Shown: positions 9,816 through 49,116, counted from the first letter of the stretch. The stretch is 64,000 nt of DNA from Tagaea sp. (GCA_965279525.1 CBDIIB010000003.1:192001-256000); one strand, 5' to 3'. Program-made: numbers and translations. The notes: a model not told the origin generated them from the sequence alone.

Positions 9816-9820
9816 GTGCG

Positions 9821-11511: not shown

Positions 11512-11774
11512 TGCTGTCGAAAGACGAAGTATTCGACAAGTTGATCGGCTACTTCGAGGAACTGTTCGAGATTCCACGCGAAAAGATCGCAATGGAATCT
11601 CGGCTTTACGAGGATCTCGATCTCGACAGCATCGATGCAGTCGATCTTGTCGTGAAACTGCAGGAGCTGACCAACCGGCGCATCAAGCCCGAAGCGTTCA
11701 AGAGCGTCCGAACCGTCGCCGACGTGGTCAAATGCATCGAAGAGCTTCTGGCGGATGACACGACCGCGCGTTGA
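11508..11774 (+). CDS. apeF: Acyl carrier protein 2
   Basis: DLDLDSIDAVDL; FKSVRTVADVV. Confidence 0.92.
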   Translation: MMLSKDEVFDKLIGYFEELFEIPREKIAMESRLYEDLDLDSIDAVDLVVKLQELTNRRIKPEAFKSVRTVADVVKCIEELLADDTTAR

Positions 11775-18957: not shown

Positions 18958-19547
18958 GCGCCACTCGCAACCGATTGCGCACGATCGCGGCCCTCGTGAT
19001 GCTGGCTTGCCTCGCCGGATGCACGACCGCGCCGGCCGAGCAGTCACCGGGCACGGTACGGATCGGTCCGGAGATGTATCTTTCGCTACCTCGACCGGAC
19101 GAATTGGGGCGCGAATTGGAAGCGGCACAACTGGTTGCGGCACGTTATGGCGAACAGACTTTCCTGTTCGAGTGCCGCCTCAGCGCGACGGCCGGGCGCT
19201 TTTCCTTTGTCGGGCTCGACATGCTGGGGCGCCGAGCCATGTCCGTTGTCTGGACGGATTCCGGCGTGACGGCCGAAAAGGCGGCATGGGTACCCCAGGC
19301 GCTGAGCCCCGAGCGGATCCTTGCCGACATGGTGCTGCTCTACTGGCCGGACGCTGCGGTTCAACGCTCCCTTCGCGGTGCCGAGCTGCGAAGTACGGCA
19401 GACGGCCGCTTGCTCCTGTCGCAAGGCAAGGAAGCGATCCGCATGCAGTATCGGCCGCTCGGCGCGGACCGCTGGACGGGACAGCTCACATTGCAGAATA
19501 TTGCGTGGGGGTATGAACTGGAAATCCAATCGACGGTATTGCAATGA
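18954..19547 (+). CDS. apeN: DUF3261-like lipoprotein
   Basis: Lipobox LAGC; ILADMVLLYWP; position between the MMPL and KS genes. Confidence 0.8.
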   Translation: MSATRNRLRTIAALVMLACLAGCTTAPAEQSPGTVRIGPEMYLSLPRPDELGRELEAAQLVAARYGEQTFLFECRLSATAGRFSFVGLDMLGRRAMSVVWTDSGVTAEKAAWVPQALSPERILADMVLLYWPDAAVQRSLRGAELRSTADGRLLLSQGKEAIRMQYRPLGADRWTGQLTLQNIAWGYELEIQSTVLQ

Positions 19548-20725
19548 CACTGTCTGTCATCGACTGCGGGGTTGTCACGCCGCTGGGGCGAGGTTGCGCG
19601 GAGAACGCGAGCGCCCTCGCCGAAGGCCGTCGAGCCTTGACGTATCGCGACGATCTGTTGTCCGGCCGGTCCGTGGCGGTCGGTGCCGTTGTCGGCGAGC
19701 TGCCACCGCTGCCTGACGCACTGGCCAATCTCGACTGTCGCAACAATCGCCTGATGCGTGTGGCGCTGGACGAGATCGCGGAGAGCGTGCGACGTGCCGC
19801 CGCACGCTTCGGTCGCGAGCGCGTGGCTGTCGTGCTGGGCACGAGTACGTCTGGCATGGCCGAAGGCGAGTCGGCGCTCGGGCATCTGCATGCGACGGGA
19901 AGCTGGCCGGCAGACTACCGCTACAGCCGTCAGGAAATCGGCAACTTGAGCGAATTCGCCGTGCGCTATCTCGATCTCGCCGGGCCGGCCTATACCGTCG
20001 CTGCGGCCTGCGCATCGAGCGCCAAGGTCTTCGCGTCGGCGCGCCGCCTGATCCGAGCAGGAGTCGCCGATGCGGCGGTGGTGGGTGGCGCCGATACGCT
20101 CTGCCGGATGACGCTGAACGGCTTCGGTTCGCTGGAGGCGCTGTCAGCGGGATTCTGCGCGCCCTTTGCTGCCGGGCGGGACGGCATCAATATCGGCGAG
20201 GGGGCGTCGGCTTTCCTGCTGTCGCGCGAAGCCGGCCCAGTCCGGTTTCTAGGGATCGGCGAGACTTCGGATGCGCATCATGTCACGGCACCGGCACCCG
20301 ACGGGAACGGCGCCATGCGCGCGATGCGCCTTGCACTCGACGATGCGGGGCTGCAGCCGTCCGAGATCAGCTATGTGAATCTTCACGGCACCGCGACTCT
20401 CCTGAACGATGCGATGGAAAGCGCTGCAGTCGCTGCTCTGTTCGGCAACCGTGTTCCATGCAGTTCTACCAAGGCGATGACCGGCCACATGCTGGGGGCC
20501 ACCGGGGGCTGCGAAGCGGCGTTCCTCTGGCTCGCGCTGAATCCGGCATTCCGTACGGGATATCTGCCGCCGCATGTCTGGAACGGCGTGCGCGATCCGG
20601 CGTTGCCGCCACTGGATTTCGTGGCGCCGGGAACCTGTTTGCGCGCCGACGGGCGTCAGTCGATGCTGAGCAATTCCTTCGGTTTCGGCGGCAGCAATGT
20701 CAGCCTGATCTTCGGTGACACATGA
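19544..20725 (+). CDS. apeO: Beta-ketoacyl-ACP synthase (KS partner of the CLF)
   Basis: RNNRL, AACASSAK (Cys), HGTAT, GHMLGA, SNSFGFGG. Confidence 0.92.
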   Translation: MTLSVIDCGVVTPLGRGCAENASALAEGRRALTYRDDLLSGRSVAVGAVVGELPPLPDALANLDCRNNRLMRVALDEIAESVRRAAARFGRERVAVVLGTSTSGMAEGESALGHLHATGSWPADYRYSRQEIGNLSEFAVRYLDLAGPAYTVAAACASSAKVFASARRLIRAGVADAAVVGGADTLCRMTLNGFGSLEALSAGFCAPFAAGRDGINIGEGASAFLLSREAGPVRFLGIGETSDAHHVTAPAPDGNGAMRAMRLALDDAGLQPSEISYVNLHGTATLLNDAMESAAVAALFGNRVPCSSTKAMTGHMLGATGGCEAAFLWLALNPAFRTGYLPPHVWNGVRDPALPPLDFVAPGTCLRADGRQSMLSNSFGFGGSNVSLIFGDT

Positions 20726-21186
20726 GCACACCGTTCCGCTACAGCGTCGAGGAGCTACTGCCGCACGAGCCGCCCATGGTATTGCTCGACGAATTGCTGG
20801 ACTGGACCGACACAGGCGCCCGCACAGCCGTCATGATCCGCGACGATAGTCCGTTCGCGGTGGCCGGGTTCGGTGTGCCCGCGCATGTCGGCATCGAATT
20901 GATGGCACAGACCTGCGGAGTTTTCGCCGGACTGGAGGCCAAGCAGGCGGGCGAGCCAGTCAAGCTTGGATTCCTGCTCGGCAGTCGCCGCTATTCGGCC
21001 GAGCGTGATCGGTTCCAGGCGGGTGAACGGCTGGAGATCCAAGTAACGTCGGTCTTCCAAGAAGGGCCGATGGCGGTCTTCGACTGCCGCATCGAAAGCG
21101 ACGGAAGGGTCGTCGCAGCTGCGCAACTGACGCTGTATCGACCGGACGATCCGGCGGCAGTTCTGTCCGCTCAGGCAATGGGGTAG
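20722..21186 (+). CDS. apeP: Hotdog-fold dehydratase subunit
   Basis: LLPHEPPMVLLD, GIELMAQ, GFLLGSR. Confidence 0.88.
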   Translation: MSTPFRYSVEELLPHEPPMVLLDELLDWTDTGARTAVMIRDDSPFAVAGFGVPAHVGIELMAQTCGVFAGLEAKQAGEPVKLGFLLGSRRYSAERDRFQAGERLEIQVTSVFQEGPMAVFDCRIESDGRVVAAAQLTLYRPDDPAAVLSAQAMG

Positions 21187-21189
21187 GGA

Positions 21190-21903
21190 ATGAAGCGCAC
21201 GATCTTGGTGACAGGTGCGAGCAAGGGAATCGGGCGTGCGATCGCGCTGCGATTGGCGCGCGACGGGTTTCGCATCGTTGTCCACTATGGGCGCGACCTC
21301 GACGGTGCCGAATCGGTGCTGTCGGAAATCGGCGATGGCCGGACGATAAACTTCGACATCTCGGATCGCGTCGCATGCCGTACCGCTCTCGAGGCCGATA
21401 TCGCCGAACATGGTCCTTACTACGGCGTCGTGCTGAATGCCGGGATTGCCCGCGACAACGCTTTTCCCGCCATGGAGGATTCCGACTGGGACGACGTGCT
21501 CGGCACCAATCTCGACGGCTTCTACAACGTGCTGCGGCCACTCGTCATGCCCATGGTGACAATGCGCGACGGCGGTCGCATCGTCACGCTGTCGTCAGTT
21601 TCCGGGATCGCAGGAAATCGGGGGCAGGTCAACTACAGTGCTGCCAAGGCCGGCATCATCGGTGCGACGAAGGCGCTGGCGATCGAACTCGCCAAGCGTG
21701 CCATTACGGTCAATTGTGTGGCACCGGGCATCATCGAGACGCAAATGACCGAAAATCTCCCGATGGACGAGGTCGCGAAACTCGTTCCGCTACGACGTTC
21801 CGGCCGACCCGAAGAGGTTGCCGGACTCGTGGCATTCCTGTGTTCCGACGAGGCATCCTACATCACCCGGCAGGTGATTTCGGTGAACGGGGGTCTCGTC
21901 TGA
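21190..21903 (+). CDS. fabG: 3-oxoacyl-ACP reductase (ApeQ)
   Basis: TGASKGIG, NAG, GNRGQVNYSAAK, RQVISVNGG. Confidence 0.93.
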   Translation: MKRTILVTGASKGIGRAIALRLARDGFRIVVHYGRDLDGAESVLSEIGDGRTINFDISDRVACRTALEADIAEHGPYYGVVLNAGIARDNAFPAMEDSDWDDVLGTNLDGFYNVLRPLVMPMVTMRDGGRIVTLSSVSGIAGNRGQVNYSAAKAGIIGATKALAIELAKRAITVNCVAPGIIETQMTENLPMDEVAKLVPLRRSGRPEEVAGLVAFLCSDEASYITRQVISVNGGLV

Positions 21904-23370: not shown

Positions 23371-23466
23371 GCGGGGTAGTTAGTGCGGATGCCATGATGC
23401 TTGTCAGGCATGCAGGCATTAGACTTATATGCATGATTGCTGGCCCCTCGAATTGACGGAGTACCG

Positions 23467-24336
23467 ATGACCGACATGCAGTTTGTCGCCCCCCGGAATC
23501 TCGAAGAGGCCATCAAGGCATTTTCGGATTCGGCGGGCGCCGCACGGATCCTTGCCGGCGGCACAGATTTGCTCGTGCAAATGCGGGCCGGTGTCGTGCG
23601 GCCCGCGATGATCATCGATATCAAGAAGATCAGCGAGCTGACCGCCATCGAGGAGATGCCGGACGGAAGTTTCGTGGTCGGAGCAGCTGCATCGGGCGCC
23701 GTGCTCGCGGAGCATTCGAAGTTCGGTGCGGTCTGGCCGGGCGTGCTCGAGGCGATCAACCTCATCGGATCCAAGCAAGTGCAAGGCCGCGCGTCGCCGG
23801 GTGGAAATCTCTGCAACGCATCGCCGGCCGGCGACAGTGTTCCAGCACTGGTTGCAGCCGCTGCGATCGTGACCGTGGCCGGTCCGAACGGCCGGCGCCA
23901 GCTGCCCGTCGAAGCGGTGCCGACGGGACCGGGGCGGACGGCGCTGGCGCGCGGCGAGATCGTCGTGAGTTTCCGGTTTCCGCCGCGTCCGGCGGGCTCT
24001 GGTGATGCGTATCTGCGCATGATCCCGAGAACCGAAATGGATATCGCCGTCGTCGGATGCGGCGTCAGCCTGACGCTGCGCGATGGCGTCTGCACGGCAG
24101 CTCGCGTCGGGCTAGGTGCGGTGGCGCCCACGGTCCTGCTGGTCGAAGCTGCAGGAATGGCCCTGATTGGCTCGAAGCTTGACGACGCCGCACTCGAAGC
24201 GGCTGCTGATTCCTGCCGTGCTGTCTGTCGCCCAATCGATGACAAGCGCGGGACCATCGAGTACCGAACCAAGATAACCGGCGTGCTGCTGAAGCGGACC
24301 GTCCGCATTGCTGCCGACCGAGCGAGAGGCATCTGA
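23467..24336 (+). CDS. Xanthine dehydrogenase family FAD-binding subunit (CoxM-like)
   Basis: LAGGTDL, GGNLCNASPAGD, PIDDKRGT-EYR; RBS GGAG before ATG 23467. Confidence 0.92.
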   Translation: MTDMQFVAPRNLEEAIKAFSDSAGAARILAGGTDLLVQMRAGVVRPAMIIDIKKISELTAIEEMPDGSFVVGAAASGAVLAEHSKFGAVWPGVLEAINLIGSKQVQGRASPGGNLCNASPAGDSVPALVAAAAIVTVAGPNGRRQLPVEAVPTGPGRTALARGEIVVSFRFPPRPAGSGDAYLRMIPRTEMDIAVVGCGVSLTLRDGVCTAARVGLGAVAPTVLLVEAAGMALIGSKLDDAALEAAADSCRAVCRPIDDKRGTIEYRTKITGVLLKRTVRIAADRARGI

Positions 24337-24339
24337 ATC

Positions 24340-24822
24340 ATGGCGAAGTTGCAGGTTTCGACCACGATAAATGGGGACTCCGTCGAATTCCTCTGCAGCC
24401 CGGGCGAGACGATGCTCGATGCGCTGCGCGGCCCGCTCGGCATGATGGGCAGCAAGGAAGGCTGCGGTTCGGGAGATTGCGGAGCCTGCAGCATCACGCT
24501 GGACGGCCGGCTCATCTGCTCGTGCCTGATGCTTGCGGCGGAGGCGGAAGGCCGCCAGATCGGCACGATCGAAGGGATGGCGAAGGGTGGGCAGATGCAT
24601 CCCCTGCAGTCGAAGTTCCTCGAGATGGCAGCACTCCAGTGCGGGATCTGCACGCCGGGCGTCTTGATGGCCGCCAAGGCGCTTCTCGAGCGGAACAATG
24701 ATCCGACGGAGGAAGAGGTGCGGTTCTGGCTGGCCGGCAATCTGTGCCGGTGCACCGGATACGACAAGATCGTGCGGGCCGTGCTCGAAACGGCCGCTGA
24801 CATGAGGGGGGCCGCACAGTGA
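24340..24822 (+). CDS. [2Fe-2S] subunit (CoxS-like)
   Basis: GCGSGDCGAC, SC, QCGICTPG, GNLCRCTGY. Confidence 0.95.
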   Translation: MAKLQVSTTINGDSVEFLCSPGETMLDALRGPLGMMGSKEGCGSGDCGACSITLDGRLICSCLMLAAEAEGRQIGTIEGMAKGGQMHPLQSKFLEMAALQCGICTPGVLMAAKALLERNNDPTEEEVRFWLAGNLCRCTGYDKIVRAVLETAADMRGAAQ

Positions 24823-27074
24823 CCGTCCAGAACAACAAGTGGATCGGCCAGCGGACCATCCGGCCCGACGGTTCCGACAAGGTGACAGGGCGCGCGGCTT
24901 ACGCCGCCGACACGACGATGACCGGAATGATCTGGGGCAAGGTCCTGCGCAGCCCGCATGCCCATGCCCGCATCCGGTCGATCGATACGGCCAGGGCCGA
25001 AGCGTTGCCCGGTGTGCGGGCGGTGATGACGGGGATGGATCTCGTGGACTTCCCCGTCGACAAGTCAGTGATGCTCGGTATCCAGGACATGCGCTGGATG
25101 ACCCGCAACGTGATGGCGCGAGAGAAGGCGCTTTTCCCGGGCCATCCGGTCGCGGCCGTCGCGGCGACATCGGAGAGAATCGCGGCCGAAGCGCTCAAGC
25201 TGATCGACGTCGACTACGAAGTCCTGCCCTGGGTGATCGACGTCGAAGAGGCGATGAGACCCGGTGCCCCGATCCTGCATGATTTCGTACGATTCGAGGA
25301 CGCGCCGTCGAATATCGCCGGTGCCCTCGAGATCAAGCTTGGCGATGCCGAGGCGGCATTCGCTGCGGCCGACATCGTCGTCGAGCGGAGCTTCCGCACC
25401 AAGCCGGTCCATCAGGGCTATATCGAACCGCACGCATGTCTCGTCAGCGTCCTGCCCGACGGCAAGTCGACGGTCTGGAGTTCGAGTCAGGGCCAGTTCA
25501 TGGTCCGGGCGATGTGCGCGCTGATGACCGGGATCCCGCAGAGCGACATCCGGGCCATCCCGGCTGAAATCGGCGGCGGTTTTGGCGGCAAGACGATCGT
25601 CTATCTCGAGCCGGTCGCTATGGTGCTGTCGAAGAAATCGGGCCATCCGGTGAAGATGGTCATGACGCGCGACGAGGTCATGCGTGCGACCGGGCCAACG
25701 TCAGGCTCCTTCAGCACGGTAAAAGTCGGCGCCACGAAGGATGGCCGGATCGTTGCCGCGAAGGGGGCCTTCTATCTTCAGGCCGGCGCCTTTCCCGGGT
25801 CGCCGATCCGCGGTGCCGCCGGCTGCGCCTTTTCGCCTTACGACATCGCCAACGTGCATTCCGTGGGCTTCGATGTCGTGTCGAACCGTTCGAAAGTTGC
25901 CGCATATCGAGCGCCGGGTGCGCCGATCGGGGCCTACGCGGTTGAGTGCGTCCTCGACGAGGTCGCCGAAGCCCTGAAGATGGATCCATTGCAGTTCCGG
26001 CTTAAGAATGCGGCCAAGGAGGGGACGAAGGCAGCCTACGGGCCTGTTTTTCCGCGCATCGGCTTCGTCGAGACGCTCCAGGCGGCCGTCGGCCATCCGC
26101 ACAGCAAGTCACCGCTCGGGAATGCGCCGGCCGGCTTCAAGCGCGGTCGCGGAGTCGCCAGTGGCTTCTGGTTCAATGCCGGTGGCGAATCCAGCGCGCA
26201 GGTCAACATCACCGAAGACGGCAATGTCGTCGTGATTACCGGACATCCGGATATCGGCGGCTCGCGTGCCTCGACCGCCAACATCACGGCGGAACTGCTC
26301 GGCATCGACTATCGGCGGGTATCGGTCCTCATCGGCGATACGAGTTCGATCGGCTACAGCGCCCTGACTGGCGGCAGCCGGGTCACCTATGCATCCGCCA
26401 TGGTGGTCACCCATTCGACCGAGCAGGTCATCGCAACCTTGCGCGAGCGCGCGGCGAAGATCTGGAAGATCGATCCGGAAGCCGTCGTCTGGCAGGACGG
26501 CGAAGCGCGTCCGGCCGGCGACAATGCGGGCAAGTTTCCCCCGCTGTCGCTCGCCGATATCGCGGCCCGGGCAGGCGAGACCGGCGGGCCCATCGGTGCG
26601 GGCAAGCAACTGAATACGACGGGTGCCGAAGGCGGGTTCGGCACGCATGTCTGCGACGTCGAAGTGGATACCGAGCTCGGGATCGTGCGCATCCTGCGCT
26701 ATACGGCCATCCAGGATGCCGGCCGTGCAATTCACCCAAGCTATGTCGAGGGGCAGATGCAGGGCGGCGTCGCCCAGGGGATCGGCTGGGCGCTCAGCGA
26801 GGAATATCTCTACGACAAGAACGGCAAGGTCGATAACGCGACCTTCCTCGACTACCGGATGCCGGTCTGCTCGGATCTTCCGATGCTCGATACGGTAATC
26901 ATCGAGGTGCCGAATCCCAAGCATCCGCAAGGCGTGCGCGGCGTGGGCGAGATCCCGCTCGTACCGGCTTTGGCGGCAGTGTCGAACGCCGTCTATAGTG
27001 CTCTCGGCCGCCGGTTCTACAGCCTGCCGATGTCGCCGCCGAAAGTGCTGGCCGGGATCGACAGGGCCGGATGA
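24819..27074 (+). CDS. Molybdopterin-binding subunit of a xanthine dehydrogenase family hydroxylase (CoxL-like, not CODH)
   Basis: KVTGRAAY, LRSPHAHA, HQGYIEPH, IGGGFGGK, AYRAPG, EGQMQGG, GVGE. Confidence 0.93.
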   Translation: MTVQNNKWIGQRTIRPDGSDKVTGRAAYAADTTMTGMIWGKVLRSPHAHARIRSIDTARAEALPGVRAVMTGMDLVDFPVDKSVMLGIQDMRWMTRNVMAREKALFPGHPVAAVAATSERIAAEALKLIDVDYEVLPWVIDVEEAMRPGAPILHDFVRFEDAPSNIAGALEIKLGDAEAAFAAADIVVERSFRTKPVHQGYIEPHACLVSVLPDGKSTVWSSSQGQFMVRAMCALMTGIPQSDIRAIPAEIGGGFGGKTIVYLEPVAMVLSKKSGHPVKMVMTRDEVMRATGPTSGSFSTVKVGATKDGRIVAAKGAFYLQAGAFPGSPIRGAAGCAFSPYDIANVHSVGFDVVSNRSKVAAYRAPGAPIGAYAVECVLDEVAEALKMDPLQFRLKNAAKEGTKAAYGPVFPRIGFVETLQAAVGHPHSKSPLGNAPAGFKRGRGVASGFWFNAGGESSAQVNITEDGNVVVITGHPDIGGSRASTANITAELLGIDYRRVSVLIGDTSSIGYSALTGGSRVTYASAMVVTHSTEQVIATLRERAAKIWKIDPEAVVWQDGEARPAGDNAGKFPPLSLADIAARAGETGGPIGAGKQLNTTGAEGGFGTHVCDVEVDTELGIVRILRYTAIQDAGRAIHPSYVEGQMQGGVAQGIGWALSEEYLYDKNGKVDNATFLDYRMPVCSDLPMLDTVIIEVPNPKHPQGVRGVGEIPLVPALAAVSNAVYSALGRRFYSLPMSPPKVLAGIDRAG

Positions 27075-39896: not shown

Positions 39897-40754
39897 GTGC
39901 CGGCCAGAAGCCCGCAAGGAACAGCAGGCTCGCCCTCAGCTTGGGGGCTCATCGGATTTGGCATTTATTTGTGTTTTCTCATTCAGTCAGCGGGTGCGCA
40001 GGCGGTCAATCAGTCACCAGAGTTGAGTGCCGCAACGGGAGCCCTTCGCGCGCGCAGCGAAGAGTTCAAACGGGAGGATCAAGCCTACAGATCCGTCCAG
40101 ACCGGTCAGAAAATGTCGACGGCCGAGCGCGACGACTATGCGGAGTTTGTTGCCGGTCTCCGCCGGAAATTTCTCGAGCAGTGCGAAGTGGTCCGAGGCC
40201 TTGGCGGTGAAAGCGCCATTGCCGAGTTCGACTGCGTCCGCGCCGGACCGCTTGTCGCCCGCGCGAGTCTCGCTCCTGTTCAAGCGGTCCAGACGGACGA
40301 CGAAAAGCGAGCGGCAGTTCAGGCGCGCCTGAACCAGATCGAGGGTGCGATCGATGAGGATCTGTTGAAGCGCCAGCAGGAGATCAAGCAGGCCGATGCC
40401 CAGCCTTCCGGGGGCAGTGCTGCCGGAGGTGCGTCAGGTCAGTCTGGCAGCGGCGGCCAGGGAGGGAGCGGCGCCAGCCAGGCAGCCGCAGCGCAGGCCG
40501 CAGGCGGTGGTGCACGTGCCGGTTCCCCGAACAGCTCGACGGCATCGGCTGCGAACGCCGGACAAGGCCTGGCCTCACCCGGCGCATCTCCGCCTGCAGC
40601 AGGCCAGCATGAACGGCAGGCAGTTGCCGACGGCGGCGTTGGCGACGACATCGTTGCACGCCAGCTAAGGGAGGCCGCCGAGAGGGAAGCCGATCCGGCG
40701 CTCCGGGAAAAACTCTGGGCCGAATATCGAAAGTATCGGGAGGCAAAAAAGTGA
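39897..40754 (+). CDS. Hypothetical secreted protein (helical, G/S/A-rich linker, charged C-terminal helix)
   Basis: Signal-like segment ending AGAQA; C-terminal DDIVARQLREAAEREADPALREKLWAEYRKYR; GTGA coupling to the next gene. Start uncertain. Confidence 0.75.
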   Translation: MPARSPQGTAGSPSAWGLIGFGIYLCFLIQSAGAQAVNQSPELSAATGALRARSEEFKREDQAYRSVQTGQKMSTAERDDYAEFVAGLRRKFLEQCEVVRGLGGESAIAEFDCVRAGPLVARASLAPVQAVQTDDEKRAAVQARLNQIEGAIDEDLLKRQQEIKQADAQPSGGSAAGGASGQSGSGGQGGSGASQAAAAQAAGGGARAGSPNSSTASAANAGQGLASPGASPPAAGQHERQAVADGGVGDDIVARQLREAAEREADPALREKLWAEYRKYREAKK

Positions 40755-42079
40755 AGTGGGCAGGATACTTGATCCGGGTGGCTGTTCCGTGCGCGCTTTC
40801 ACTTTTTGTTGGTGCCTGCGCGGCGAACTACCCGACGCGGACGGTGTCGTATACCGAGACCAAGCTCGAGCGTCCCGACGCGCAGCAGTCGGAATCCGAT
40901 CTTCTGAATGTCAGGATCGAGGTTTTCGAGAAGGGGGAACTGCCCGACGATCCGAACGTCCGCAGAGGGCTTTCGCCCGATATCCGAAATGCCGAGGCTT
41001 ACTACGTTCCGACCCAGATCAAGAATGCAATGCAACGCTCCGGGCATTGGGGGCAGGTTCGTGTGGTTCCGTCGGGTGGACGGGAGGGCGAGGTTCATAT
41101 CAGCGGGAAAATCCTCGAATCGGATGGCGAGGTCCTCAAGCTCGAAGTGCAGGTCAGAGATGCTACCGGTGCGCCGTGGTTTACCAAGCGATACGAGAGC
41201 GTCATCGACGCCGCCGCGTACAGCAAAGCCGAAGCGGCCCGCGTCGATGCGTTTCAGGACACTTATAACCAGATCGCCAACGACGTCGCGGCCTACAGGA
41301 AGCACCTGAAGTCCGGGGATGCTGCGGAAATCCGGCAGGTGGCGGAGCTGCGCTTTGGCGCCGACTTCGCGCCGTCGGCATATGGGAGTTTCATCAAGAA
41401 GACGGAGACTCCGACACCGGCGCAGTCGGACGTATTGCAGCGGCTGTGGGGGGCAATAAGCCGCGACCAGAAGCCCTCCGCCCGCGTCCCTGCGTATACG
41501 GTCGATCGGCTTCCGTCCGAAGACGATCCCGTTGTCCAGCGGGTCAGTCGAATCAGGGCCCGCGAGGAGTTTCTGATCGACACGCTCGACCAGCAGTATG
41601 ACGGGTTGGCCAAGTCGATCAGCGATCCTTACACGCTCTGGCGGACGTCGCGCCTGAAGGAGATCAATGCGATCCGGGCCGTCGACAAGGTCCAGAACGA
41701 GGAGCAGGCAAAGGCCGTTGCTGCCGGTGTCTTTGGCGTACTTTTGGGTGTTGCCCTGGCTTCACAAAGCAATAGCGGCGGTGGCTGCTATGGCTGTACG
41801 ACTGCCGGTGTCGCGGTTGCGGCAGGTGCTGTCGCGATCGGCGTCCAGATGGCGACGCGTGCGTCCGAGCAGGCCGCCTCGGAGACCGCACTTCGGCGCA
41901 CCGCACTGGAAGAGCTCGGGAACTCGCTTGCGACGGACGTCAAGCCGACGGTGGTCGAAGTTGAAGGCAAGACCGTCGAACTGAAGGGGACCGTCGAGGA
42001 GAAGTTCAAGGCTTGGCGTGAAGTCCTGCAGTCGCTCCAGGAACTCGAGACGGGACAGCCGGCCCCCGCAACCTCCTAG
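40751..42079 (+). CDS. Hypothetical lipoprotein with C-terminal hydrophobic glycine/alanine hairpin
   Basis: Lipobox VGAC; alpha/beta N-domain; VAAGVFGVLLGVALAS...GVAVAAGAVAIGV. Confidence 0.8.
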   Translation: MKWAGYLIRVAVPCALSLFVGACAANYPTRTVSYTETKLERPDAQQSESDLLNVRIEVFEKGELPDDPNVRRGLSPDIRNAEAYYVPTQIKNAMQRSGHWGQVRVVPSGGREGEVHISGKILESDGEVLKLEVQVRDATGAPWFTKRYESVIDAAAYSKAEAARVDAFQDTYNQIANDVAAYRKHLKSGDAAEIRQVAELRFGADFAPSAYGSFIKKTETPTPAQSDVLQRLWGAISRDQKPSARVPAYTVDRLPSEDDPVVQRVSRIRAREEFLIDTLDQQYDGLAKSISDPYTLWRTSRLKEINAIRAVDKVQNEEQAKAVAAGVFGVLLGVALASQSNSGGGCYGCTTAGVAVAAGAVAIGVQMATRASEQAASETALRRTALEELGNSLATDVKPTVVEVEGKTVELKGTVEEKFKAWREVLQSLQELETGQPAPATS

Positions 42080-42099: not shown

Positions 42100-43551
42100 A
42101 TGCAGTCCGCCTCCCGGTCGACGCGCAAGATCGTCATATCCGCGGCACTTCTTGCCGCTCTGGCGTCTATCGCGATTTATGTCGTTCTTGTCCTGCCGGA
42201 GCGGGTCCAGCAGGTGGGCAAGCCGTTGCCGCCGACTGGTCGTGCCGATGTTGCCTCACCGCCGCCGCAGCGTCCAGCCATAGACGCTGCTCCTGCGCCG
42301 GCCCAAGCGGAAAATGACCGGCTTGTAGCCGAAGCTTCCCAAGCGTCGGCTCTCCAGAAGCTGGCAAAGCTCGAAGGCGAAGGTGCGCGCGTCTGGGGCG
42401 CGGAAATGCTGTCTGGCACGGGCATGGCTTTGGTTGAAGAGGCCTTGGCGAAGGCAAATGGAGCGATTGTTCGGCGCGCATTTGGCGATGCCAGCTCCGC
42501 TTTCGCAGAGGTCGGCGCGCAACTCGATCGTCTGGCAGATTCGAAGCCTGAACGCCTTGCGCGGGCCATGGCGGAGGGGGCTGCCGCGCTGGCCGGGCTC
42601 GATGCGCCGTCGGCCTTGAAGCAGTTCACGATCGCCGCGGCGGCGGCGCCCGGAAACGCCGAAGCGGAACGCGGACTTGACCGGGCGCGCAAGCTCCCGG
42701 AGGCACTGGCAAGCGTCGCCGCCGGCGATGCAGCGGTTGCCGCACGGGATTTTCCGACCGCGAAGTCGGCATATCAGAGGGCTGGCGAAATCGATCCCGG
42801 CCTCGCCGTTGCGCGGGAGAAGCTCCGCGACATCGATGCGCGGATATCCGCTCAGGCCTACCAGTCCGCAGTTACCGAAGCTGTCGCACGCCTCCGGGAG
42901 GGAAATGCGAAGTCGGCAGAAACCGCACTTGCGCGCGCCCAAAGGTTACGCCCGAATGCCCCAGAGCTTGCCGATCTACGGATGCAGATTGCCGCGGCAT
43001 CCAAACTTTCGGAAATCCGGCGTCTCCAGGGTGCGGCAGAAGCGATGGAGCGTCAGGAAAAATGGTCCGAAGCCGCAAAAGCGTACGAGCAGGTATTGGC
43101 ACTCGACGCCAGCGCTGCGTTCGCCGGACGGGGTCTGGAGCAGGCAAAACACCTCGCGGCACTGCATGGTTTGATCGACGGATATCTTGCGAGCCCGGAG
43201 CGACTGCGATCATCCGAGCCTCGTTCACATGCGCAGGCGGTTCTCGGTCAAGCCAGTGCATCGGAGCCGGGTCCGGTATTGCGCGGAAAAGCCGATCGGC
43301 TAACCGAACTTCTGGCGGCGGCGCAGGCACCGATTCCAGTGACACTCAAGTCCGACAACGCGACACAGATCGAGATCCTGCGCGTCGGCCCTTTGGGAAT
43401 TTTCGAGAGGCATAGCCTGTCGCTCATTCCAGGTCGGTATACGGCCGTCGGACGGAGAGCCGGATATCGGGATGTTCGTGTACAGTTCGAAGTGGCCCGA
43501 GCCGAACAACCGCTGGAGATCGTCGTGCAGTGCATCGAGAGGATCCGTTGA
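42100..43551 (+). CDS. Membrane-anchored TPR-like protein with C-terminal PEGA-like domain
   Basis: N-terminal TM, Pro-rich linker, TPR-like turns (APGNAEAERGL, IDPGLAVA, LRPNAPEL, LALDASAAFA); PGRYTAVGRRAGYRDVR. Confidence 0.8.
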   Translation: MQSASRSTRKIVISAALLAALASIAIYVVLVLPERVQQVGKPLPPTGRADVASPPPQRPAIDAAPAPAQAENDRLVAEASQASALQKLAKLEGEGARVWGAEMLSGTGMALVEEALAKANGAIVRRAFGDASSAFAEVGAQLDRLADSKPERLARAMAEGAAALAGLDAPSALKQFTIAAAAAPGNAEAERGLDRARKLPEALASVAAGDAAVAARDFPTAKSAYQRAGEIDPGLAVAREKLRDIDARISAQAYQSAVTEAVARLREGNAKSAETALARAQRLRPNAPELADLRMQIAAASKLSEIRRLQGAAEAMERQEKWSEAAKAYEQVLALDASAAFAGRGLEQAKHLAALHGLIDGYLASPERLRSSEPRSHAQAVLGQASASEPGPVLRGKADRLTELLAAAQAPIPVTLKSDNATQIEILRVGPLGIFERHSLSLIPGRYTAVGRRAGYRDVRVQFEVARAEQPLEIVVQCIERIR

Positions 43552-45968
43552 CAAAGCTCCGGTTCGAGCGGGCCGGCGACGGGCCTACATTCCAGGAATC
43601 CGACTTTCCGCTGGCGGTCGGACTGACGGCGCGTGGTGTGGAAATCGGCCCATCAGCCGCCGGCACGACGGTTGCCTGGCTCCTGCAGCATCCCAAAGGT
43701 CTGTCACTCCAGCCGGAAAGTTCGGGCATCTCGTTCCTCGTGAACGGTGCGCCGCTTCTGCGTGCCGTATGGATAACCGGAGGCGATCGAATACAGATCG
43801 ACAGGCATTCTCTGGTCGTCGACTGGTCCGGAGACGTGCCCTGCCTGCGGGCGGTGGATCAGACGCCGGACGGCCCGACAGACGTACCGGTTGAAGGTGC
43901 ATTGCTGGAACAGGCAGAGCGGATCGGACGGAAATTCGACGATCCAGGACGGGCCAACTCGGGCAAGGGCCGCCACAAGGCGAGGATTTTCGCGGCCGTG
44001 TCGGCATTTGCCGTGCTCTGCGCTGGTGTCGCATTCGTGCTGCTCGCATCGCCGATCAACCTGCGCTTCACGCCCGATGCCGACACGGTCTCGATCACCG
44101 GGTTCCCGCCTTCTTTCCAGGTCGGGGATCGCCATCTTGCCCTGCCTGGCACTTATCGGGTGGAGGCACGGAAGGAAGGTTTCAAGGACATCGATCGCAG
44201 GATCGTCGTCGAATATGGCACCGCCCCGTTGCATGATCTCGCTTTCCAGAAGCTCGACGGCGTCTTGCGGGTCACGACGAAGCCGATCGACGGTGCGAAG
44301 GTTCTTGTGGACGGCATCGAGCGGGCGTCGACGCCTGCCGAGATCGAAGTTGCGGCCGGAACCCGAGACATCAGTGTCACGGCTGACCGGTACCTTCCCG
44401 AAAGCCGGCAACTGGCAGTCGAGGGGATGGGGCGGCGGCAGGATCTCGAGATCGAGATGAAGCCGGCCTGGGCGGAAATCCGGATTTCTTCCCGACCTGC
44501 CGGTGCGCAGGTGAAAATCGGCAGCGATGCTGTCGGAACGACGCCCGTCGTCACCCAGGTACTTCAAGGTGAACAGGATCTCGAAGTCTCACTGGCAGGC
44601 TGGAAGACGATCCGCCGCAAGTTGGCTGTCAAAGCCGGTGTTCCGGAAGCACTTCCGACCTTCGAGATGGAGCGGCTTGATGGCGTACTCGCTCTGGTAT
44701 CCGAGCCGACGGGCGCAACGGTCACGGTGAACGGGCAGTTTCGAGGCCAGACCCCGCTCTCGATCTCGCTTGTCGGGGACAGGGACTATCAGGTGGTTCT
44801 CTCGAAGTCCGGCTACGAAAATGAAACGCGCTCTTTCCGGATCGAGGGTGAAAGAACGAACCGAGGCAGCATCCAGCTGCAGCCCGAGTACGGAACCGTT
44901 TTCGTGACGATCAGCCCGCCCGGGGCGACGCTCAGGATCAACGGCAAGGCAAACGGAAGCGGCTCGCAGAGACTGTCGCTCCAGACACTGCCGCAGACCC
45001 TTGAAGTCGACATGCCCGGCCATGAATCCCAGAAGATGGCGGTGACGCCGCAGAAGGGCGTCGCGAAGCGGCTCGACATCACGCTCAAGACCGTTGGTCA
45101 GGCGATGCGGGACAAGTACGGACGAGGCATCGTCAGCGCCGGTGGCGAGAAGCTCGTCTTGGCCCAGTTCACGGAGCCAGTCGCGATCATGATCGGCTCC
45201 CCTCGGCGGGACCCATCGCGCCGATCCAACGAGACGGAGTATCAGGTCGAACTCACGCGCTCCTTCCTCATCAGCGAGAAGGAGGTGACCAATGCGGATT
45301 TCAAGAAATTCAAGCCCGGACATTCGTCAGGCTCGATCCAGGGGGCGAGTCTCGATGGCGCCGACCAGCCGGTCGTGAACGTCTCGTGGGAGGATGCCGC
45401 ACGCTATGCAAACTGGCTCAGTTCGAAGGAGGGGCTGGTCCCGGCCTACCGCGAGCAAGGCGGAAAGGTCGCTGCCGTCCATCCGCTTACGAACGGATAT
45501 CGCCTTCCGACCGAAGCGGAATGGGAGTTTGTCGCAAGATATGAAGCCATCGCGCGGGCGGGCGCTCAGCCTTTGCGGTTTCCTTGGGGCGATGCCGCGA
45601 CGACGCCGGCTGGCAGCGGGAACTTCGCACACGACGGCTCGGGGCTGCCACTTACGATTCCGGGCTATGTCGACCAGTATGTCGGATCGGCGCCGGTCGG
45701 AAAATTCCCGCCGAACCGGGCCCAGATCTACGATCTCGCAGGAAATGTCGCGGAATGGTGCCATGATTACTACGATGTGACGCTCGGTCCGTCGACGGGC
45801 ATCAAGCGCGATCCGGCCGGTCCGGCGGAGGGAAGATTTCATGTTGTCAAAGGATCGAGCTGGCGGACGGGAAGCCTGGCGGAGTTGCGATTTGCCTATC
45901 GCGACTACACCGAAAAGCCTCGCGATGACCTCGGCTTCAGGGTGGCGAGATATGTCGATGCACCTTGA
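43548..45968 (+). CDS. FHA-like + TM + PEGA repeats + FGE-sulfatase (SUMF1/GldK-like) domain protein
   Basis: FLVNG..GGDRIQI; TM; repeated S-P-GA-V-(I/V)(D/N)G PEGA units; EVTNADF, PVVNVSWEDA, YRLPTEAEWE, DLAGNVAEW, GFRVAR. TTGA overlap with GAGAGGA RBS. Confidence 0.88.
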   Translation: MTKLRFERAGDGPTFQESDFPLAVGLTARGVEIGPSAAGTTVAWLLQHPKGLSLQPESSGISFLVNGAPLLRAVWITGGDRIQIDRHSLVVDWSGDVPCLRAVDQTPDGPTDVPVEGALLEQAERIGRKFDDPGRANSGKGRHKARIFAAVSAFAVLCAGVAFVLLASPINLRFTPDADTVSITGFPPSFQVGDRHLALPGTYRVEARKEGFKDIDRRIVVEYGTAPLHDLAFQKLDGVLRVTTKPIDGAKVLVDGIERASTPAEIEVAAGTRDISVTADRYLPESRQLAVEGMGRRQDLEIEMKPAWAEIRISSRPAGAQVKIGSDAVGTTPVVTQVLQGEQDLEVSLAGWKTIRRKLAVKAGVPEALPTFEMERLDGVLALVSEPTGATVTVNGQFRGQTPLSISLVGDRDYQVVLSKSGYENETRSFRIEGERTNRGSIQLQPEYGTVFVTISPPGATLRINGKANGSGSQRLSLQTLPQTLEVDMPGHESQKMAVTPQKGVAKRLDITLKTVGQAMRDKYGRGIVSAGGEKLVLAQFTEPVAIMIGSPRRDPSRRSNETEYQVELTRSFLISEKEVTNADFKKFKPGHSSGSIQGASLDGADQPVVNVSWEDAARYANWLSSKEGLVPAYREQGGKVAAVHPLTNGYRLPTEAEWEFVARYEAIARAGAQPLRFPWGDAATTPAGSGNFAHDGSGLPLTIPGYVDQYVGSAPVGKFPPNRAQIYDLAGNVAEWCHDYYDVTLGPSTGIKRDPAGPAEGRFHVVKGSSWRTGSLAELRFAYRDYTEKPRDDLGFRVARYVDAP

Positions 45969-46191
45969 AGCAGTCAGGCGCGTGGTCCTGGCGATCGTGA
46001 TTCTTCTCTCAGTGGCACCGGCCGCGATCGCCCAAGCCGCAGATCCGGCCAGGACACCGGCAGCGCCACCATCTGCGCCGGTGACGCCAAGTGCCGCTCA
46101 GGCGGCACCACCCCAACAGCCGCCTTCCACCTTCCGTCCGGCCGAGCTGGTTTCGCCAAGCCGCAAGCTCTCCATGCCGAACGACATGTAA
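45958..46191 (+). CDS. Small secreted protein (signal peptide, Pro/Ala linker, short C-terminal motif)
   Basis: RRVVLAIVILLSVAPAAIAQA then a PA-rich linker and FRPAELVSPSRKLSMPNDM; fills the operon gap. Confidence 0.65.
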   Translation: MHLEAVRRVVLAIVILLSVAPAAIAQAADPARTPAAPPSAPVTPSAAQAAPPQQPPSTFRPAELVSPSRKLSMPNDM

Positions 46192-46201: not shown

Positions 46202-46999
46202 ATGCGCAGGTTGTTTCCGACCGAGTTCATCTTCCAGATCGCATCGCTTCTCGTCTCGTTCATCGTCGTGCACGCGTTCTACGTTGCCGAGGTGCGCCCG
46301 AACGCCGAGATTTTCCTCACCCAGGAGCGCGCCAAGGCGTCGATCGATCCGTCTTACGAAATGCAGCAATCGATCTTCGTGATCCTTCGCGACTACGAGC
46401 AGGAAGCATGTTTCGTGCTGATGTTCTGGGCGATCGCGATCCTCGGATACAAAGGTTACAAAGTTTACCGGCAGCAGCGGCAGCTCGAGCTCGATCTGGT
46501 CGGGTTACCCGAGGAGGCGACGGTCACCGTCGAGACCGCACGCCAGACCTCGACCTTGATCCGAAAACGGCTCGACGTGGAGCAGCAGGATTTCCTGCTC
46601 TCCCGGTCGATGCTTGCGGCGATCGATCGGTTCTCGGTGACACGGAACGTCCAGGACGCCTCCAGTGTCGTGCACACGATCTGCGATGCCGAGTCCGAGC
46701 GGCTCGACACGGACCTTTCGATCATCCGCTATGTCGCGTGGGCAATTCCTTCGATCGGCTTCATCGGCACGGTCCGGGGCATTGGCGACGCGCTGACCAA
46801 GGTGCAGAAGGCCGTGGCCGGCGATATCACCGGCGTTACGGACAGTCTTGGAACCGCGTTCAATTCGACACTCATCGCCCTGCTGATATCGATCGTGCTC
46901 ATGTTCGTGATCCACCAGATGCAGTCTGCGCAGGAAAAGCTCGTGCTCGACACGCGGCGCTATTGCGACGATTGGCTTGTCCGTCGCCTCAGAAGCTAG
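46202..46999 (+). CDS. MotA/TolQ/ExbB proton channel family protein
   Basis: AIPSIGFIGTVRGIGDAL and LGTAFNSTLIALLISI (TM signature with conserved Pro/Gly/Thr); two N-terminal TMs. Confidence 0.9.
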   Translation: MRRLFPTEFIFQIASLLVSFIVVHAFYVAEVRPNAEIFLTQERAKASIDPSYEMQQSIFVILRDYEQEACFVLMFWAIAILGYKGYKVYRQQRQLELDLVGLPEEATVTVETARQTSTLIRKRLDVEQQDFLLSRSMLAAIDRFSVTRNVQDASSVVHTICDAESERLDTDLSIIRYVAWAIPSIGFIGTVRGIGDALTKVQKAVAGDITGVTDSLGTAFNSTLIALLISIVLMFVIHQMQSAQEKLVLDTRRYCDDWLVRRLRS

Positions 47000-47017: not shown

Positions 47018-48112
47018 ATGAAGGGCAGGCGCGAAGCACCCGGGGGGCTGATATCGTTCCTCGACGTCATGTGCTGCGGCTTCGGTGCCGTCGTTCTTCT
47101 TGTCGTCATCCTGAACGGCAATCTCGTACAGAAGCGCGAGACGCAGTCCGAAGCGATGCGGGAGGAGGTCAGGCAACTCACCCAGCTGGAGTCATTCGCA
47201 CGGCAGGAATTGGCCCAGACCGGCGCCGAACTTGCGGGCGTCGAGGAGCAGAGGGCCTCGGTCAGCGCCCAGGCGGCACGGCTTGAGGCAAGGCTGCGCG
47301 ATACGCGCAGCCGGACCCAGGAAGTCCAGGCGCGGGCGGAGGCGCTGCAATCCTCCATCGCGACACTCCAGACGCAGAGTGCGGCGGTCGAGCAGGCCGT
47401 GACGCTGCTGAGATCGAAGGCGACCCAGCAATGGGATGGCGGGCGCCGGCCGGTCGGATTCTCCGGCGATGGCCAGAGGCAGTATTTGACCGGGCTCAAG
47501 CTCGGCGGCGAGCGGACGCTGATCCTGCTCGACTCGTCGGCAAGCATGCTCGACGAAACCATCGTCAACGTGGTGCGGTGGCGGATCACGGAGCCCGCGA
47601 TCAAGCGAACCGCGCCAAAATGGCAGCGCACGACGCGGACCTTGCATTGGCTCGTCGCGAATCTTCGACCCGGCAAGCAATTCCAAGTCTACCAGTTCAA
47701 TGCCTCCGCATCTCCACTGCTTGCCGGAACGGAAGGAAAGTGGCTTAGCACCAACGATACGGCGAGCCTGACTGGCGCACTGGCGGCCGCATCACAGATC
47801 GTGCCTGCCGGTGGCACCAGCCTGCATCGGGCATACGCGGTCATCGCGCAGATGAAACCGCCGCCGGACAGCGTTGTCGTGCTTACGGACGGACTGCCGA
47901 CCCTCGGCGTGCGCGAAGAGCCCGGCCGGCTTGTCTCGGCGGAAGAGCGGCTGACCCTTTTCAGCGATGCGATCCGGCTCATTCCGGGATCGATACCGGT
48001 AAATACGATCCTGTTTCCGATGGAAGGGGATCCCGCGGCGGCAGGCGCTTTCTGGCAACTTGCGCTCATGACGCAGGGCTCGTTCATGACACCGGCAAGG
48101 GATTGGCCGTGA
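47018..48112 (+). CDS. ExbD/MotB-like TM + coiled coil + vWA domain protein 1
   Basis: Basic N-terminus, SFLDVMCCGFGAVVLL TM, long heptad region, MIDAS DSSAS...GGT...LTDGLP. Confidence 0.85.
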   Translation: MKGRREAPGGLISFLDVMCCGFGAVVLLVVILNGNLVQKRETQSEAMREEVRQLTQLESFARQELAQTGAELAGVEEQRASVSAQAARLEARLRDTRSRTQEVQARAEALQSSIATLQTQSAAVEQAVTLLRSKATQQWDGGRRPVGFSGDGQRQYLTGLKLGGERTLILLDSSASMLDETIVNVVRWRITEPAIKRTAPKWQRTTRTLHWLVANLRPGKQFQVYQFNASASPLLAGTEGKWLSTNDTASLTGALAAASQIVPAGGTSLHRAYAVIAQMKPPPDSVVVLTDGLPTLGVREEPGRLVSAEERLTLFSDAIRLIPGSIPVNTILFPMEGDPAAAGAFWQLALMTQGSFMTPARDWP

Positions 48113-49116
48113 TGCGAAAGGCGCGCCGGGAAGCGGAAACCTTCAGCCTTTCATTCCTCGACATCATCGCGTGCGGGTTCGGGGCAGTGATCCTGCTTCT
48201 GATCATGACGCTGGCATTCGAGCCGAGCACGATCCGGGAGGTGGTCAGGAATCTTGAAACAGAAGCCGCCCAGAGCCGAGCCAGCCGTGATTCGCTGAAC
48301 ACGGAACGTCAGGCCCTGTCGCGCGAATTGCAGCAGAAGCGGGACGACCTGTCCCGGATGCAGGCGCAGATCTCGTCGTTGAGTGCGGAGATGGATCGTG
48401 CCGACAGGCAATTCGGAACCGTCCGGGCAAGTGCCGAGACCAACGTCCGCATCGAGGAGCAGCTGAAGAACGTCCAGCAGTCGCTGACCGAAGAAATGCG
48501 CCGGCTGATGGGGCGCCCGGAGGAGCGGAAGCCCAACCTGGATGCGCCGATCGGCGGGATACCGGTCGATAGCGAATACATCATCTTCATCATCGACACG
48601 TCGGGAAGCATGAAGATCGGGGCCTGGCCGCTGGTCGTGCGCAAGGTGCAGGAAGTTCTCGAGGCCTATCCGAAGGTAAAGGGATTCCAGGTCATGAATG
48701 ATGTCGGGACGTATATGTTCCCGACATATGCCGGACAGTGGATTCCCGATACGCCCGGGCGCCGATCGGTGGTTCTGAGCCAGCTCCAGAACTGGAACAG
48801 CTTCAGCCGGAGCAACCCGGCACCGGGCATCATTCAGGCGATCAGGACGTTCTATCGCCCCGACCAGCCGACCAGTCTTTTCATCTTCGGCGACGACTTC
48901 AACGGCACGAGCATCGACGAAGTGGTCAATGTCGTCTCCCAAAGCAATCGCCGCGACGCGCAGGGAAACGTGCCGATCCGGATCCACACATTCGGGTTTC
49001 CGGTATTGCCTGTTTACACCAAGCAGATCGAGAATTTCACCCGCTTCGCCCACTTGATGCGAACCCTTGCGGAGCGGAATGCGGGAACTTTCGTCGGCTT
49101 GAACTCGGTTCGTTGA
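48109..49116 (+). CDS. ExbD/MotB-like TM + coiled coil + vWA domain protein 2
   Basis: MRKARRE, SFLDIIACGFGAVILL TM, coiled coil, IFIIDTSGSM, IFGDDF; GTGATG overlap. Confidence 0.85.
   Translation: MMRKARREAETFSLSFLDIIACGFGAVILLLIMTLAFEPSTIREVVRNLETEAAQSRASRDSLNTERQALSRELQQKRDDLSRMQAQISSLSAEMDRADRQFGTVRASAETNVRIEEQLKNVQQSLTEEMRRLMGRPEERKPNLDAPIGGIPVDSEYIIFIIDTSGSMKIGAWPLVVRKVQEVLEAYPKVKGFQVMNDVGTYMFPTYAGQWIPDTPGRRSVVLSQLQNWNSFSRSNPAPGIIQAIRTFYRPDQPTSLFIFGDDFNGTSIDEVVNVVSQSNRRDAQGNVPIRIHTFGFPVLPVYTKQIENFTRFAHLMRTLAERNAGTFVGLNSVR

Follow-up and report, generated by a model that had tools for sequence, protein, structure and literature searches.

A putative ion-driven motor with a paired von Willebrand factor A head, encoded in a conserved envelope gene cluster of Tagaea sp.

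Ion motors of 5:2 subunit composition power flagella, nutrient uptake, envelope integrity, gliding, type IX secretion and phage defence, and each new output module has shown another way in which bacteria spend the proton motive force (PMF) outside the cytoplasm. We describe here three adjacent genes of Tagaea sp. that encode a proton-channel protein, the A subunit, and two paralogous proteins, B1 and B2, each carrying a domain of von Willebrand factor A (vWA) type. They lie on the plus strand of a 64,000-nucleotide (nt) stretch of DNA (GCA_965279525.1, CBDIIB010000003.1:192001-256000), called the window in the following, and all positions are counted from its first letter. The closest described systems are those of the TPH-vWA class, which was predicted by genomics and AlphaFold 3 (PMC12204202; Mol Biol Evol 2025, msaf138). 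As set out in the main text of that paper, the class comprises vWA proteins tethered by a transmembrane (TM) helix and encoded as pairs, mainly heterologous ones, beside a tolQ-like gene and without a tolR or exbD gene. The helix carries a conserved Asp and is without the SHLS motif, members occur in Proteobacteria and Verrucomicrobia, and the reference organism is Idiomarina loihiensis. The AlphaFold 3 models reported there put both helices inside the pentamer and both Asp residues in the threonine ring.

At the Tagaea locus a heterologous pair of vWA genes stands next to a tolQ-like gene, the N-terminal helices carry the Asp and are without SHLS motif or His, and no tolR, exbD or motB gene is present; searches of the cluster with Pfam and NCBIfam and of 45 other open reading frames (ORFs) of the window gave no ExbD, TolR, MotB or OmpA family. 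We consider it likely that B1 and B2 form the pore dimer of a PMF motor. With less assurance, we lean towards a fuller reading in which an A5:B1:B2 motor would couple to an envelope partner through a moving, heterodimeric axle with vWA heads. The three genes are as follows.

46202..46999, plus strand: A subunit, MotA/TolQ/ExbB-family proton-channel protein, 265 aa, ATG start (identified by PF01618)
47018..48112, plus strand: B1, 364 aa, with trans-pore helix, coiled coil, neck and vWA domain
48112..49116, plus strand: B2, paralogue of B1, 334 aa from ATG 48112, with helix, coiled coil, neck and vWA domain

They are the final three of a tight row of genes on the plus strand between 39.9 and 49.1 kb. 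B1 starts 18 nt past the end of A and is preceded by a ribosome site, GAGGGAG. The ORF finder starts B2 at TTG 48103 (48103-49116); homologues favour ATG 48112, which has one base in common with the B1 stop (TGATG), and from this overlap the two genes are predicted to be translationally coupled. An earlier note on this DNA, made from the sequence, had placed both B genes directly behind an ExbB-like gene, and the ORFs lie where it put them.

The channel subunit and the trans-pore helices

The A subunit matched the Pfam family PF01618 (MotA_ExbB) with an E value of 8.9e-14 and 51.8 bits, above the gathering cut-off of 22.9. Its match to the TolQ model TIGR02796 (9.5e-8) stayed under cut-off, and among solved structures it matched TolQ (8odt/9kpz, E 0.013). 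In an ungapped alignment, T190 and T223 of A fall on positions 145 and 178 of E. coli TolQ (8odt_A). Both sit on the last two TM helices, in the motifs P-x-I-G-x-x-G-T-V-R-G-I-G and F-N-x-T, and T190, T223, P183 and G189-G195 are invariant in 51/51 sequences. We take these two positions to be the equivalents of the threonines that face the Asp of ExbD, TolR and MotB. A description to the same effect, general in its terms, is given in PMC12204202. Four TM helices are predicted in A (8-28, 66-88, 176-198 and 216-240), and hydropathy combined with charge suggests a MotA-like topology. The label "ExbB-like" given to A by the earlier note is only approximate: it is right for the family, but the topology would be that of MotA.

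For comparison, 57 related loci were taken, with a single genome for each species; they belong to Alphaproteobacteria, Gammaproteobacteria, Deltaproteobacteria/Desulfuromonadales and one Puniceicoccaceae (Verrucomicrobia) genome, and one of them, L023, is from the cultured Geothermobacter hydrogeniphilus HR-1. An A gene is present in 51 of the 57. B1 and B2 begin with nearly identical helices, SFLDVMCCGFGAVVLL and SFLDIIACGFGAVILL. The trans-pore helix of B1 spans residues 14-32, with Asp16 encoded at nt 47063-47065 and followed by CCGFG (19-23). In B2, numbered from the ATG, Asp17 is encoded at nt 48160-48162 and is followed by ACGFG (20-24). Neither helix, SFLDVMCCGFGAVVLLVVIL or SFLDIIACGFGAVILLLIM, contains a His.

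The helix Asp is kept in nearly all homologues, as expected for a motor B subunit by the earlier note. In the window and the 57 related loci it is found in 50/51 B1 rows, the remaining row being cut by a contig end, and in 50/50 B2 rows; it is invariant in the B1 alignment A1 (40 sequences) and in the B2 alignment A2 (35 sequences). A wider sample was drawn from the clusters at 50% identity, as the best 150 representatives of 3,567 matches. A recognisable N-terminal motif was found by regular expression in 122 of these, while 7 begin inside the motif and 21 are without an N-terminus. The Asp is present in 120 of the 121 representatives that have a homologous N-terminal helix. One protein, P0222, carries Ser at this position and has an N-terminus that is aberrant upstream too, and another, P0218, gave a false match to the regular expression in a non-homologous N-terminus. 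Invariance of the CGFG motif was checked as well: C20, G21, F22 and G23 of B1 are invariant in A1, and a first-match tally of the 122 representatives gave CGFG 89 times and CGLG 22 times, so that CG[FL]G is present in at least 111/122.

Positive charges are unequally distributed on the two sides of the helix. Counting Lys plus Arg, the N-terminal side is richer in 29, equal in 7 and poorer in 4 of the 40 B1 sequences (mean 3.4 vs 2.2), and richer in 31, equal in 4 and poorer in 0 of the 35 B2 sequences (mean 3.3 vs 1.6). By the positive-inside rule this favours an N-in orientation with periplasmic vWA domains, the topology that had been anticipated; the Asp would then lie near the cytoplasmic end of the helix, as in MotB, ExbD and TolR. 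A periplasmic site of action also fits the other products of the cluster, which have signal peptides, a lipobox or N-in anchors.

The coiled-coil stalk, the vWA heads and the predicted heterodimer

The paralogy of B1 and B2 extends over most of the two chains. BLASTP aligned them over 186 residues with 26% identity (E 7e-12), and a profile-profile comparison over 267 columns, from the TM helix to the TDG/GDD motif, gave a probability of 99.8% (E 1.4e-28). AlphaFold2 models built with family alignments showed the same architecture for both proteins: a short N-terminus is followed by a single very long helix, which leads through a short conserved neck into an alpha/beta domain. For B1 the mean pLDDT is 80.0, the helix covers residues 34-138 and the domain 166-351; for B2 the mean is 78.8, the helix covers 39-122 and 127-133 and the domain 156-329. 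The coiled coil of B2 is placed at 39-133. The neck is RQYLTGL (154-160, conserved) in B1 and IGGIPVDSEY (147-156) in B2, and a C-terminal DWP is invariant in B1. When the models were compared with the PDB by Foldseek, the top matches of both were vWA domains with a probability of 1.00 and E values of about 1e-6, including ITIH1 (6fpy), CLCA1 (6pyo), BatB (3ibs), 4jdu, 4fx5, ANTXR2 (the vWA domain of an anthrax toxin receptor) and integrin I domains. A profile search of PDB sequences with B1 returned coiled-coil noise only, and the vWA domain was seen through the fold search. The near-identical N-terminal TM helix, the paralogy, the long coiled coil, modelled here as a single helix of about 100 residues, and the vWA heads had all been read from the sequence by the earlier note and are borne out by these comparisons.

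The same holds for the two motifs, DSSAS..TDG and DTSGS..GDD, in which metal ion-dependent adhesion sites (MIDAS) had been recognised; both are present and conserved in A1 and A2. Assigned by motif and profile alignment, the putative MIDAS residues of B1 are D172-S174-S176 (nt 47531-47545), T267 and T290-D291. S174, S176, T290 and D291 are invariant in A1, D172 is kept in at least 90% of sequences, and position 267 is mostly T or S. In B2 the MIDAS-type residues are D162-S164-S166 (nt 48595-48609), S232/S234 and D261, and D162, T163, S164, G165, S166, S232, S234 and D261 are all invariant in A2.

The length of the coiled-coil stalk is conserved in the family: the distance from the helix Asp to DxSxS has a median of 153 residues and is mostly 125-160 (104 representatives). 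At 1.5 A per residue, a stalk of about 100 residues would be about 15 nm long.

The proposal of a heterodimeric B subunit gained support from a confidently predicted B1:B2 complex. Its ipSAE score was 0.83 (runs 0.83, 0.82 and 0.83), compared to 0.02 for the best of 3 controls. This mark was reached by 116/157 solved complexes and by 2/215 mismatched pairs, counts that are only approximate because the alignments were our own. At least 72% of contacts are common to the runs, and the partner pLDDT is at least 77. In the model the interface is parallel and in register. It starts in the TM helices (residues 18, 22 and 25 of B1 with 19, 23 and 26 of B2), continues heptad-wise up to residue 135 of B1 and 133 of B2, and then takes in the last helix and the C-terminal strand of both vWA domains. 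Invariant residues in the interface of the heads are W346, G354, P359, D362 and W363 of B1 and M316, R317, G325, F327 and G329 of B2. The model supports binding of B1 and B2 as a heterodimer.

The family is large. A profile search of 1.84 billion representatives returned 3,567 matches at E values up to 1e-3; there are 499 clusters at 50% identity with E values up to 1e-30, and more than 5,000 proteins at 90% clustering. Homologues retrieved with B1 and with one gammaproteobacterial homologue were only unnamed proteins or proteins of metagenome-assembled genomes, their names being generic or, in a few cases, automatic and evidently wrong. A tblastn search of 72,556 plasmids with B1 gave no match.

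Partner genes of the cluster

Upstream of A, the row contains five further genes on the same strand.

39897..40754, plus strand: g1, secreted protein, start codon uncertain (identified as an ORF and by conservation)
40751..42079, plus strand: g2, lipoprotein (lipobox Cys23, hydrophobic segments)
42100..43551, plus strand: g3, periplasmic tetratricopeptide repeat (TPR) protein anchored in the inner membrane (TPR_2, TM 11-29)
43530..45968, plus strand: g4, bitopic PEGA/FGE-sulfatase protein, GldK/PorK-like (Pfam, NCBIfam and PDB matches)
45952..46191, plus strand: g5, small ORF of 79 aa (conserved C-terminal tail)

For 32 loci, 8 kb or more of sequence is available upstream of B1, and the partner genes were counted in these. 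Among them, g1 is present in 31, g2 in 25, g3 in 29, g4 in 31, A in 31 and B2 in 32, and 25 loci have all of g1-g4. The row as a whole is kept across the groups to which the related loci belong. Gene order varies: in the 49 loci with A and B1-B2, A precedes B1 in 28 (directly in 19, and with an extra gene of 430 aa in 9) and follows B2 in 21, for example at 12075-12872 in L030 and at 12088-12885 in L033. The linkage of A with B1-B2 thus survives rearrangement. The extra gene, of about 430 aa, lies just upstream of B1 in gammaproteobacterial clusters (L009 8648-9943, L042 8680-10011, L033 8677-9975, L030 8659-9975); it matched no Pfam family and is absent from the cluster in the window.

The g1 product has an N-terminus resembling a signal peptide, is of low complexity in its middle part and ends in a strongly conserved helix region (DDIVARQLREAAE..DP.L.EKLW.EY.KY). 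Its C-terminus DDIVARQLREAAEREADPALREKLWAEYRKY (40650-40754, residues ~250-285) is 75-84% identical between alpha- and gammaproteobacterial copies, and the remainder diverges. No family was found for g1 in Pfam or NCBIfam, apart from a weak, sub-threshold match of the C-terminus to DUF6381, and its protein atlas clusters are named "hypothetical protein" only. In g2 the lipobox Cys23 is invariant in 27/27 aligned sequences and a pair of Gly/Ala-rich hydrophobic segments occupies residues 320-367; it too is without a Pfam or NCBIfam family, the atlas name being "Lipoprotein family protein". The g3 product matched TPR_2 (E 6.2e-5) and has a TM helix at 11-29 and a conserved C-terminal domain of beta type.

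In g4 a cytoplasmic N-terminal domain of poor conservation (1-150) is followed by a TM helix (153-171), then by about five PEGA/Ig-like domains and, at the C-terminus, by an FGE-sulfatase fold. Pfam identified PEGA (E 3.8e-40, 4 stretches), CarboxypepD_reg (2.2e-10) and FGE-sulfatase (4.9e-38), and the C-terminus matched FGE (4.5e-19) and PorK (1.2e-12) in the PDB. The match of g4 to GldK (TIGR03525) reached 1.7e-25 and 90.2 bits, far below the cut-off of 350. FGE carries two catalytic cysteines in its C-terminal last ~60 residues. The FGE-fold domain of g4 (45207-45968) is well conserved and has no Cys in its last 60 residues; because of this it is probably a binding module like that of PorK/GldK and not an FGE enzyme. 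An FHA domain in the N-terminus of g4, weakly hinted at in one homologue (E 0.058), found nothing to sustain it in the window copy and was rejected. The TM helices of g3 and g4 are poorly conserved and show no conserved His or polar motif of the SHLS kind.

The small ORF g5 fills a 233-nt "gap" between g4 and A. It has a start resembling a signal peptide, a Pro-rich middle and a conserved tail, TFRPAELVSPSRKLSMPNDM in the window and TFKPSEEISEDSPVPFPVDI as the family consensus; most relatives have F-P-x-D-I where the window has M-P-N-D-M. An ORF ending in [FYMI]-P-x-D-[IM]-stop was found at most 460 nt after the g4 homologue in 46/46 loci including the window, compared to 0/46 on the reverse strand of these stretches. 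The tail is a candidate ligand of the MIDAS sites of the vWA domains or of the TPR protein g3.

The cluster is flanked in the window by ordinary metabolism, with an ABC transporter upstream and Lrp and PutA downstream. Elsewhere on the plus strand, 9812-21903 holds a lipid or polyene-type biosynthesis cluster that was likened to aryl-polyene clusters (Ketoacyl-synt_2, acyltransferase, acyl carrier protein, LolA-like protein, large membrane protein, ketosynthase, ApeP-like dehydratase and ketoreductase), and 23437-27074 holds genes for a three-subunit molybdenum hydroxylase of xanthine or CO dehydrogenase type (FAD, 2Fe-2S and molybdopterin subunits).

The proposed motor, its alternatives and known systems

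In the mechanism that we propose, five A subunits would form the proton-conducting ring of an ion-driven 5:2 motor of the MotAB/ExbBD/TolQR type. One N-terminal helix of B1 and one of B2 would stand side by side in its pore and present D16 and D17 to the threonine ring of A (T190, T223). Instead of forming an ExbD/TolR or OmpA-type domain, the two chains would go on as a coiled coil, parallel and in register, about 100 residues long. At its far end, some 15 nm above the inner membrane, two vWA domains would pair as a heterodimer, each bearing a metal site of MIDAS type. Proton flow would make ring and axle turn relative to each other, so that the vWA head would be driven by PMF. This head would be the periplasmic coupling end, its metal sites holding an acidic residue of a partner, most likely a co-conserved envelope protein such as the g5 tail, g1, g2 or the FGE domain of g4, whose PEGA stalk may reach a similar height above the membrane. 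PMF would in this way end up as a torque or a pull acting on an assembly in the periplasm or the outer membrane. By analogy with Tol-Pal or type IX secretion (the T9SS), we would guess at a role in envelope maintenance or in the handling of a surface structure.

A wider picture is put forward only tentatively: the motor might be the engine of an undescribed eight-protein, envelope-spanning machine, widespread among Proteobacteria and Verrucomicrobia, whose shaft turns or pulls a double-MIDAS head that grips the g5 tail or the FGE domain of g4. If true, this would be a third route, beside Ton/Tol and T9SS, for carrying PMF energy to the outer envelope, and the first vWA/MIDAS grip worked mechanically by ion flow instead of an ATPase. 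If confirmed, it could hint at an envelope process in many environmental Gram-negative bacteria. The parts list of eight genes, two Asp, two Thr, two MIDAS sites and a candidate peptide ligand makes a large class testable.

Because every feature described for the TPH-vWA class is found here, the locus is a typical further member of that class, as judged by the features given in the main text of PMC12204202. Several points weigh against the reading of an A5:B1:B2 motor with a gripping head as we have set it out. A search of the literature found no other paper that describes the class and no experimental work on any member; in the parts of PMC12905483 and PMC12505986 available to us, vWA domains are not mentioned. 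B1 and B2 gave no match to ExbD, TolR (PF02472) or MotB in Pfam and NCBIfam at E values up to 0.1. Since similarity to these families is not detectable, the assignment as B subunits rests on position, topology and Asp, and B1 and B2 are best described from their sequences as positional analogues outside the ExbD/TolR/MotB families. In Pfam, VWA_2 scored 23.4 bits with B1 and 22.2 with B2, just under the gathering threshold of 27. Two B1 homologues (L043 9965-11053 and L052 9965-11047) have Q or A for the first MIDAS Asp and Ala at the Thr, the remainder being conserved; as these residues are lost there, the predicted metal binding may be dispensable in some members and perhaps is not essential everywhere. 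The score of the B1:B2 model may simply reflect the likeness of paralogous coiled coils to dimers. In L030, A, B1 and B2 are present and g1-g4 are not found within 10 kb upstream.

The alternative that survives best keeps the same 5:2 motor and makes the vWA head a static anchor that ties the axle to the wall or to an outer-membrane partner, the part played in MotB or TolR by the peptidoglycan-binding domain, with the rotating A ring dragging g3, g4 or both. TonB and TolA are believed to be dragged in this manner by ExbB and TolQ, and g3 and g4 have a comparable TonB/TolA-like layout, N-in with one TM helix and a long periplasmic part; they accompany the motor in 29/32 (g3) and 31/32 (g4) loci. 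The B dimer is moreover the held part in MotAB, ExbBD and TolQR, as is established and also described in the available text of PMC12905483. However, the poorly conserved helices of g3 and g4 offer no conserved His or SHLS-like motif, and a double MIDAS head on a stalk of fixed length is more elaborate than an anchor requires. A moving axle, as in GldM, and a held axle, as in MotB or TolR, cannot be told apart directly from sequence. We regard the static anchor as possible but on the unlikely side.

In another arrangement, B1 and B2 would each form homodimers, so that two kinds of motor, A5:B1x2 and A5:B2x2, would exist and differ in their heads. The B subunits are, to our knowledge, homodimeric in every 5:2 motor of solved structure, and paralogous coiled coils often pair either way. 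Yet B1 and B2 occur together in 32/32 loci with enough sequence and appear translationally coupled, the heterodimer model reaches 0.83 against 0.02 for the best control, and the residues of the vWA-vWA interface are invariant while differing between the paralogues. The genes are also mainly in heterologous pairs according to the main text of PMC12204202. Separate homodimeric motors therefore seem improbable to us, and the heterodimeric axle is retained.

We think it very improbable that B1 and B2 are membrane-anchored vWA proteins of BatA/BatB or MoxR-partner type that act outside the channel, with A working alone or with an ExbD/TolR encoded elsewhere. TPR and vWA genes co-occur in Bat operons, and BatB (3ibs) is among the closest structural matches; but no MoxR/AAA+ or DUF58 gene lies in the cluster or the window, the helix Asp and the CGFG motif are invariant, and the linkage of A, B1 and B2 is tight. 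No ExbD or TolR is found in the window, and none is reported for the family in the main text of PMC12204202.

A Zorya-type anti-phage system, a MotAB-like sensor with effectors, is scarcely credible: ZorA models match A only weakly and partially (PADLOC, E 9.2e-5 for residues 200-286; NCBIfam ZorA_4, 0.0059) and along generic channel helices only, A with its 265 aa lacks the long tail of ZorA, the cluster contains neither a nuclease nor a helicase nor a ZorC/D-like gene, the partners are secreted proteins and lipoproteins, the flanks are housekeeping genes (ABC transporter, Lrp, PutA), the same eight genes recur across several classes, and B1 was unmatched in the plasmid search.

The A5:B1:B2 motor can be set beside the described systems. 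TolQR and ExbBD are the nearest for the channel, as A falls in the same Pfam family, has TolQ chains as its closest solved relatives and aligns with them at the pore threonines; the B subunits likewise have a single N-in helix with the Asp near its cytoplasmic end. They differ in that A here seemingly has four TM helices instead of three, that B is made of two different chains with a coiled coil and a vWA domain and without ExbD/TolR similarity, and that no TonB- or TolA-like SHLS partner is found in the cluster. With MotAB and PomAB the motor would share the four-TM A subunit, the Asp of B and a domain in the periplasm through which the dimer is fixed or coupled. Unlike them, it has no OmpA-like peptidoglycan-binding domain and no match to the MotB plug family, the cytoplasmic domain of A is small (~90 residues), and no flagellar genes lie nearby.

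GldLM/PorLM with GldK/PorK-GldN resemble the present cluster in combining a 5:2 motor, with a long periplasmic shaft as its B subunit, and a co-encoded protein of FGE-sulfatase fold. In contrast, A here belongs to the TolQ/MotA branch and does not match the GldL model, and homologues of GldM, GldN and SprA are not found; g4, unlike GldK/PorK, is anchored in the inner membrane by an internal TM helix, contains PEGA domains and has no lipobox. The likeness to T9SS is one of architecture only, and the features of GldK/PorK membership are absent from g4. The AglRQS motor of Myxococcus has one A-type subunit (AglR) and two B-type subunits (AglQ and AglS), possibly as a heteromeric axle. AglQ and AglS differ from B1 and B2 in being short and TolR-like, without a coiled coil or vWA domain. 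The vWA protein of Myxococcus gliding, CglB, is a separate outer-membrane lipoprotein, according to the available text of PMC9946355. With BatA/BatB the locus has in common the vWA fold (the top structural matches include 3ibs and 4jdu), an anchor in the membrane and an operon that encodes a TPR protein; it differs by having no MoxR ATPase or DUF58 gene and by the motor Asp in a helix encoded beside a channel gene.

In Zorya, ZorA has a long cytoplasmic tail and ZorB a peptidoglycan-binding domain, accompanied by ZorC/D or other effectors; membership of ZorAB was rejected for the locus on the length of A, its partial ZorA matches over the channel helices and the lack of effector-like genes in the cluster. 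The TPH-vWA class remains the nearest relative, and the motor interpretation is sound and already in print there as a computational prediction. None of the words coiled, heterodimer, MIDAS, sulfatase, PEGA and formylglycine occurs in the main text of PMC12204202, and its Fig. 4c may show neighbouring genes; since these terms are absent from the main text, the coiled-coil stalk, the metal sites and the partners g1-g5 appear to be additions to the described class.

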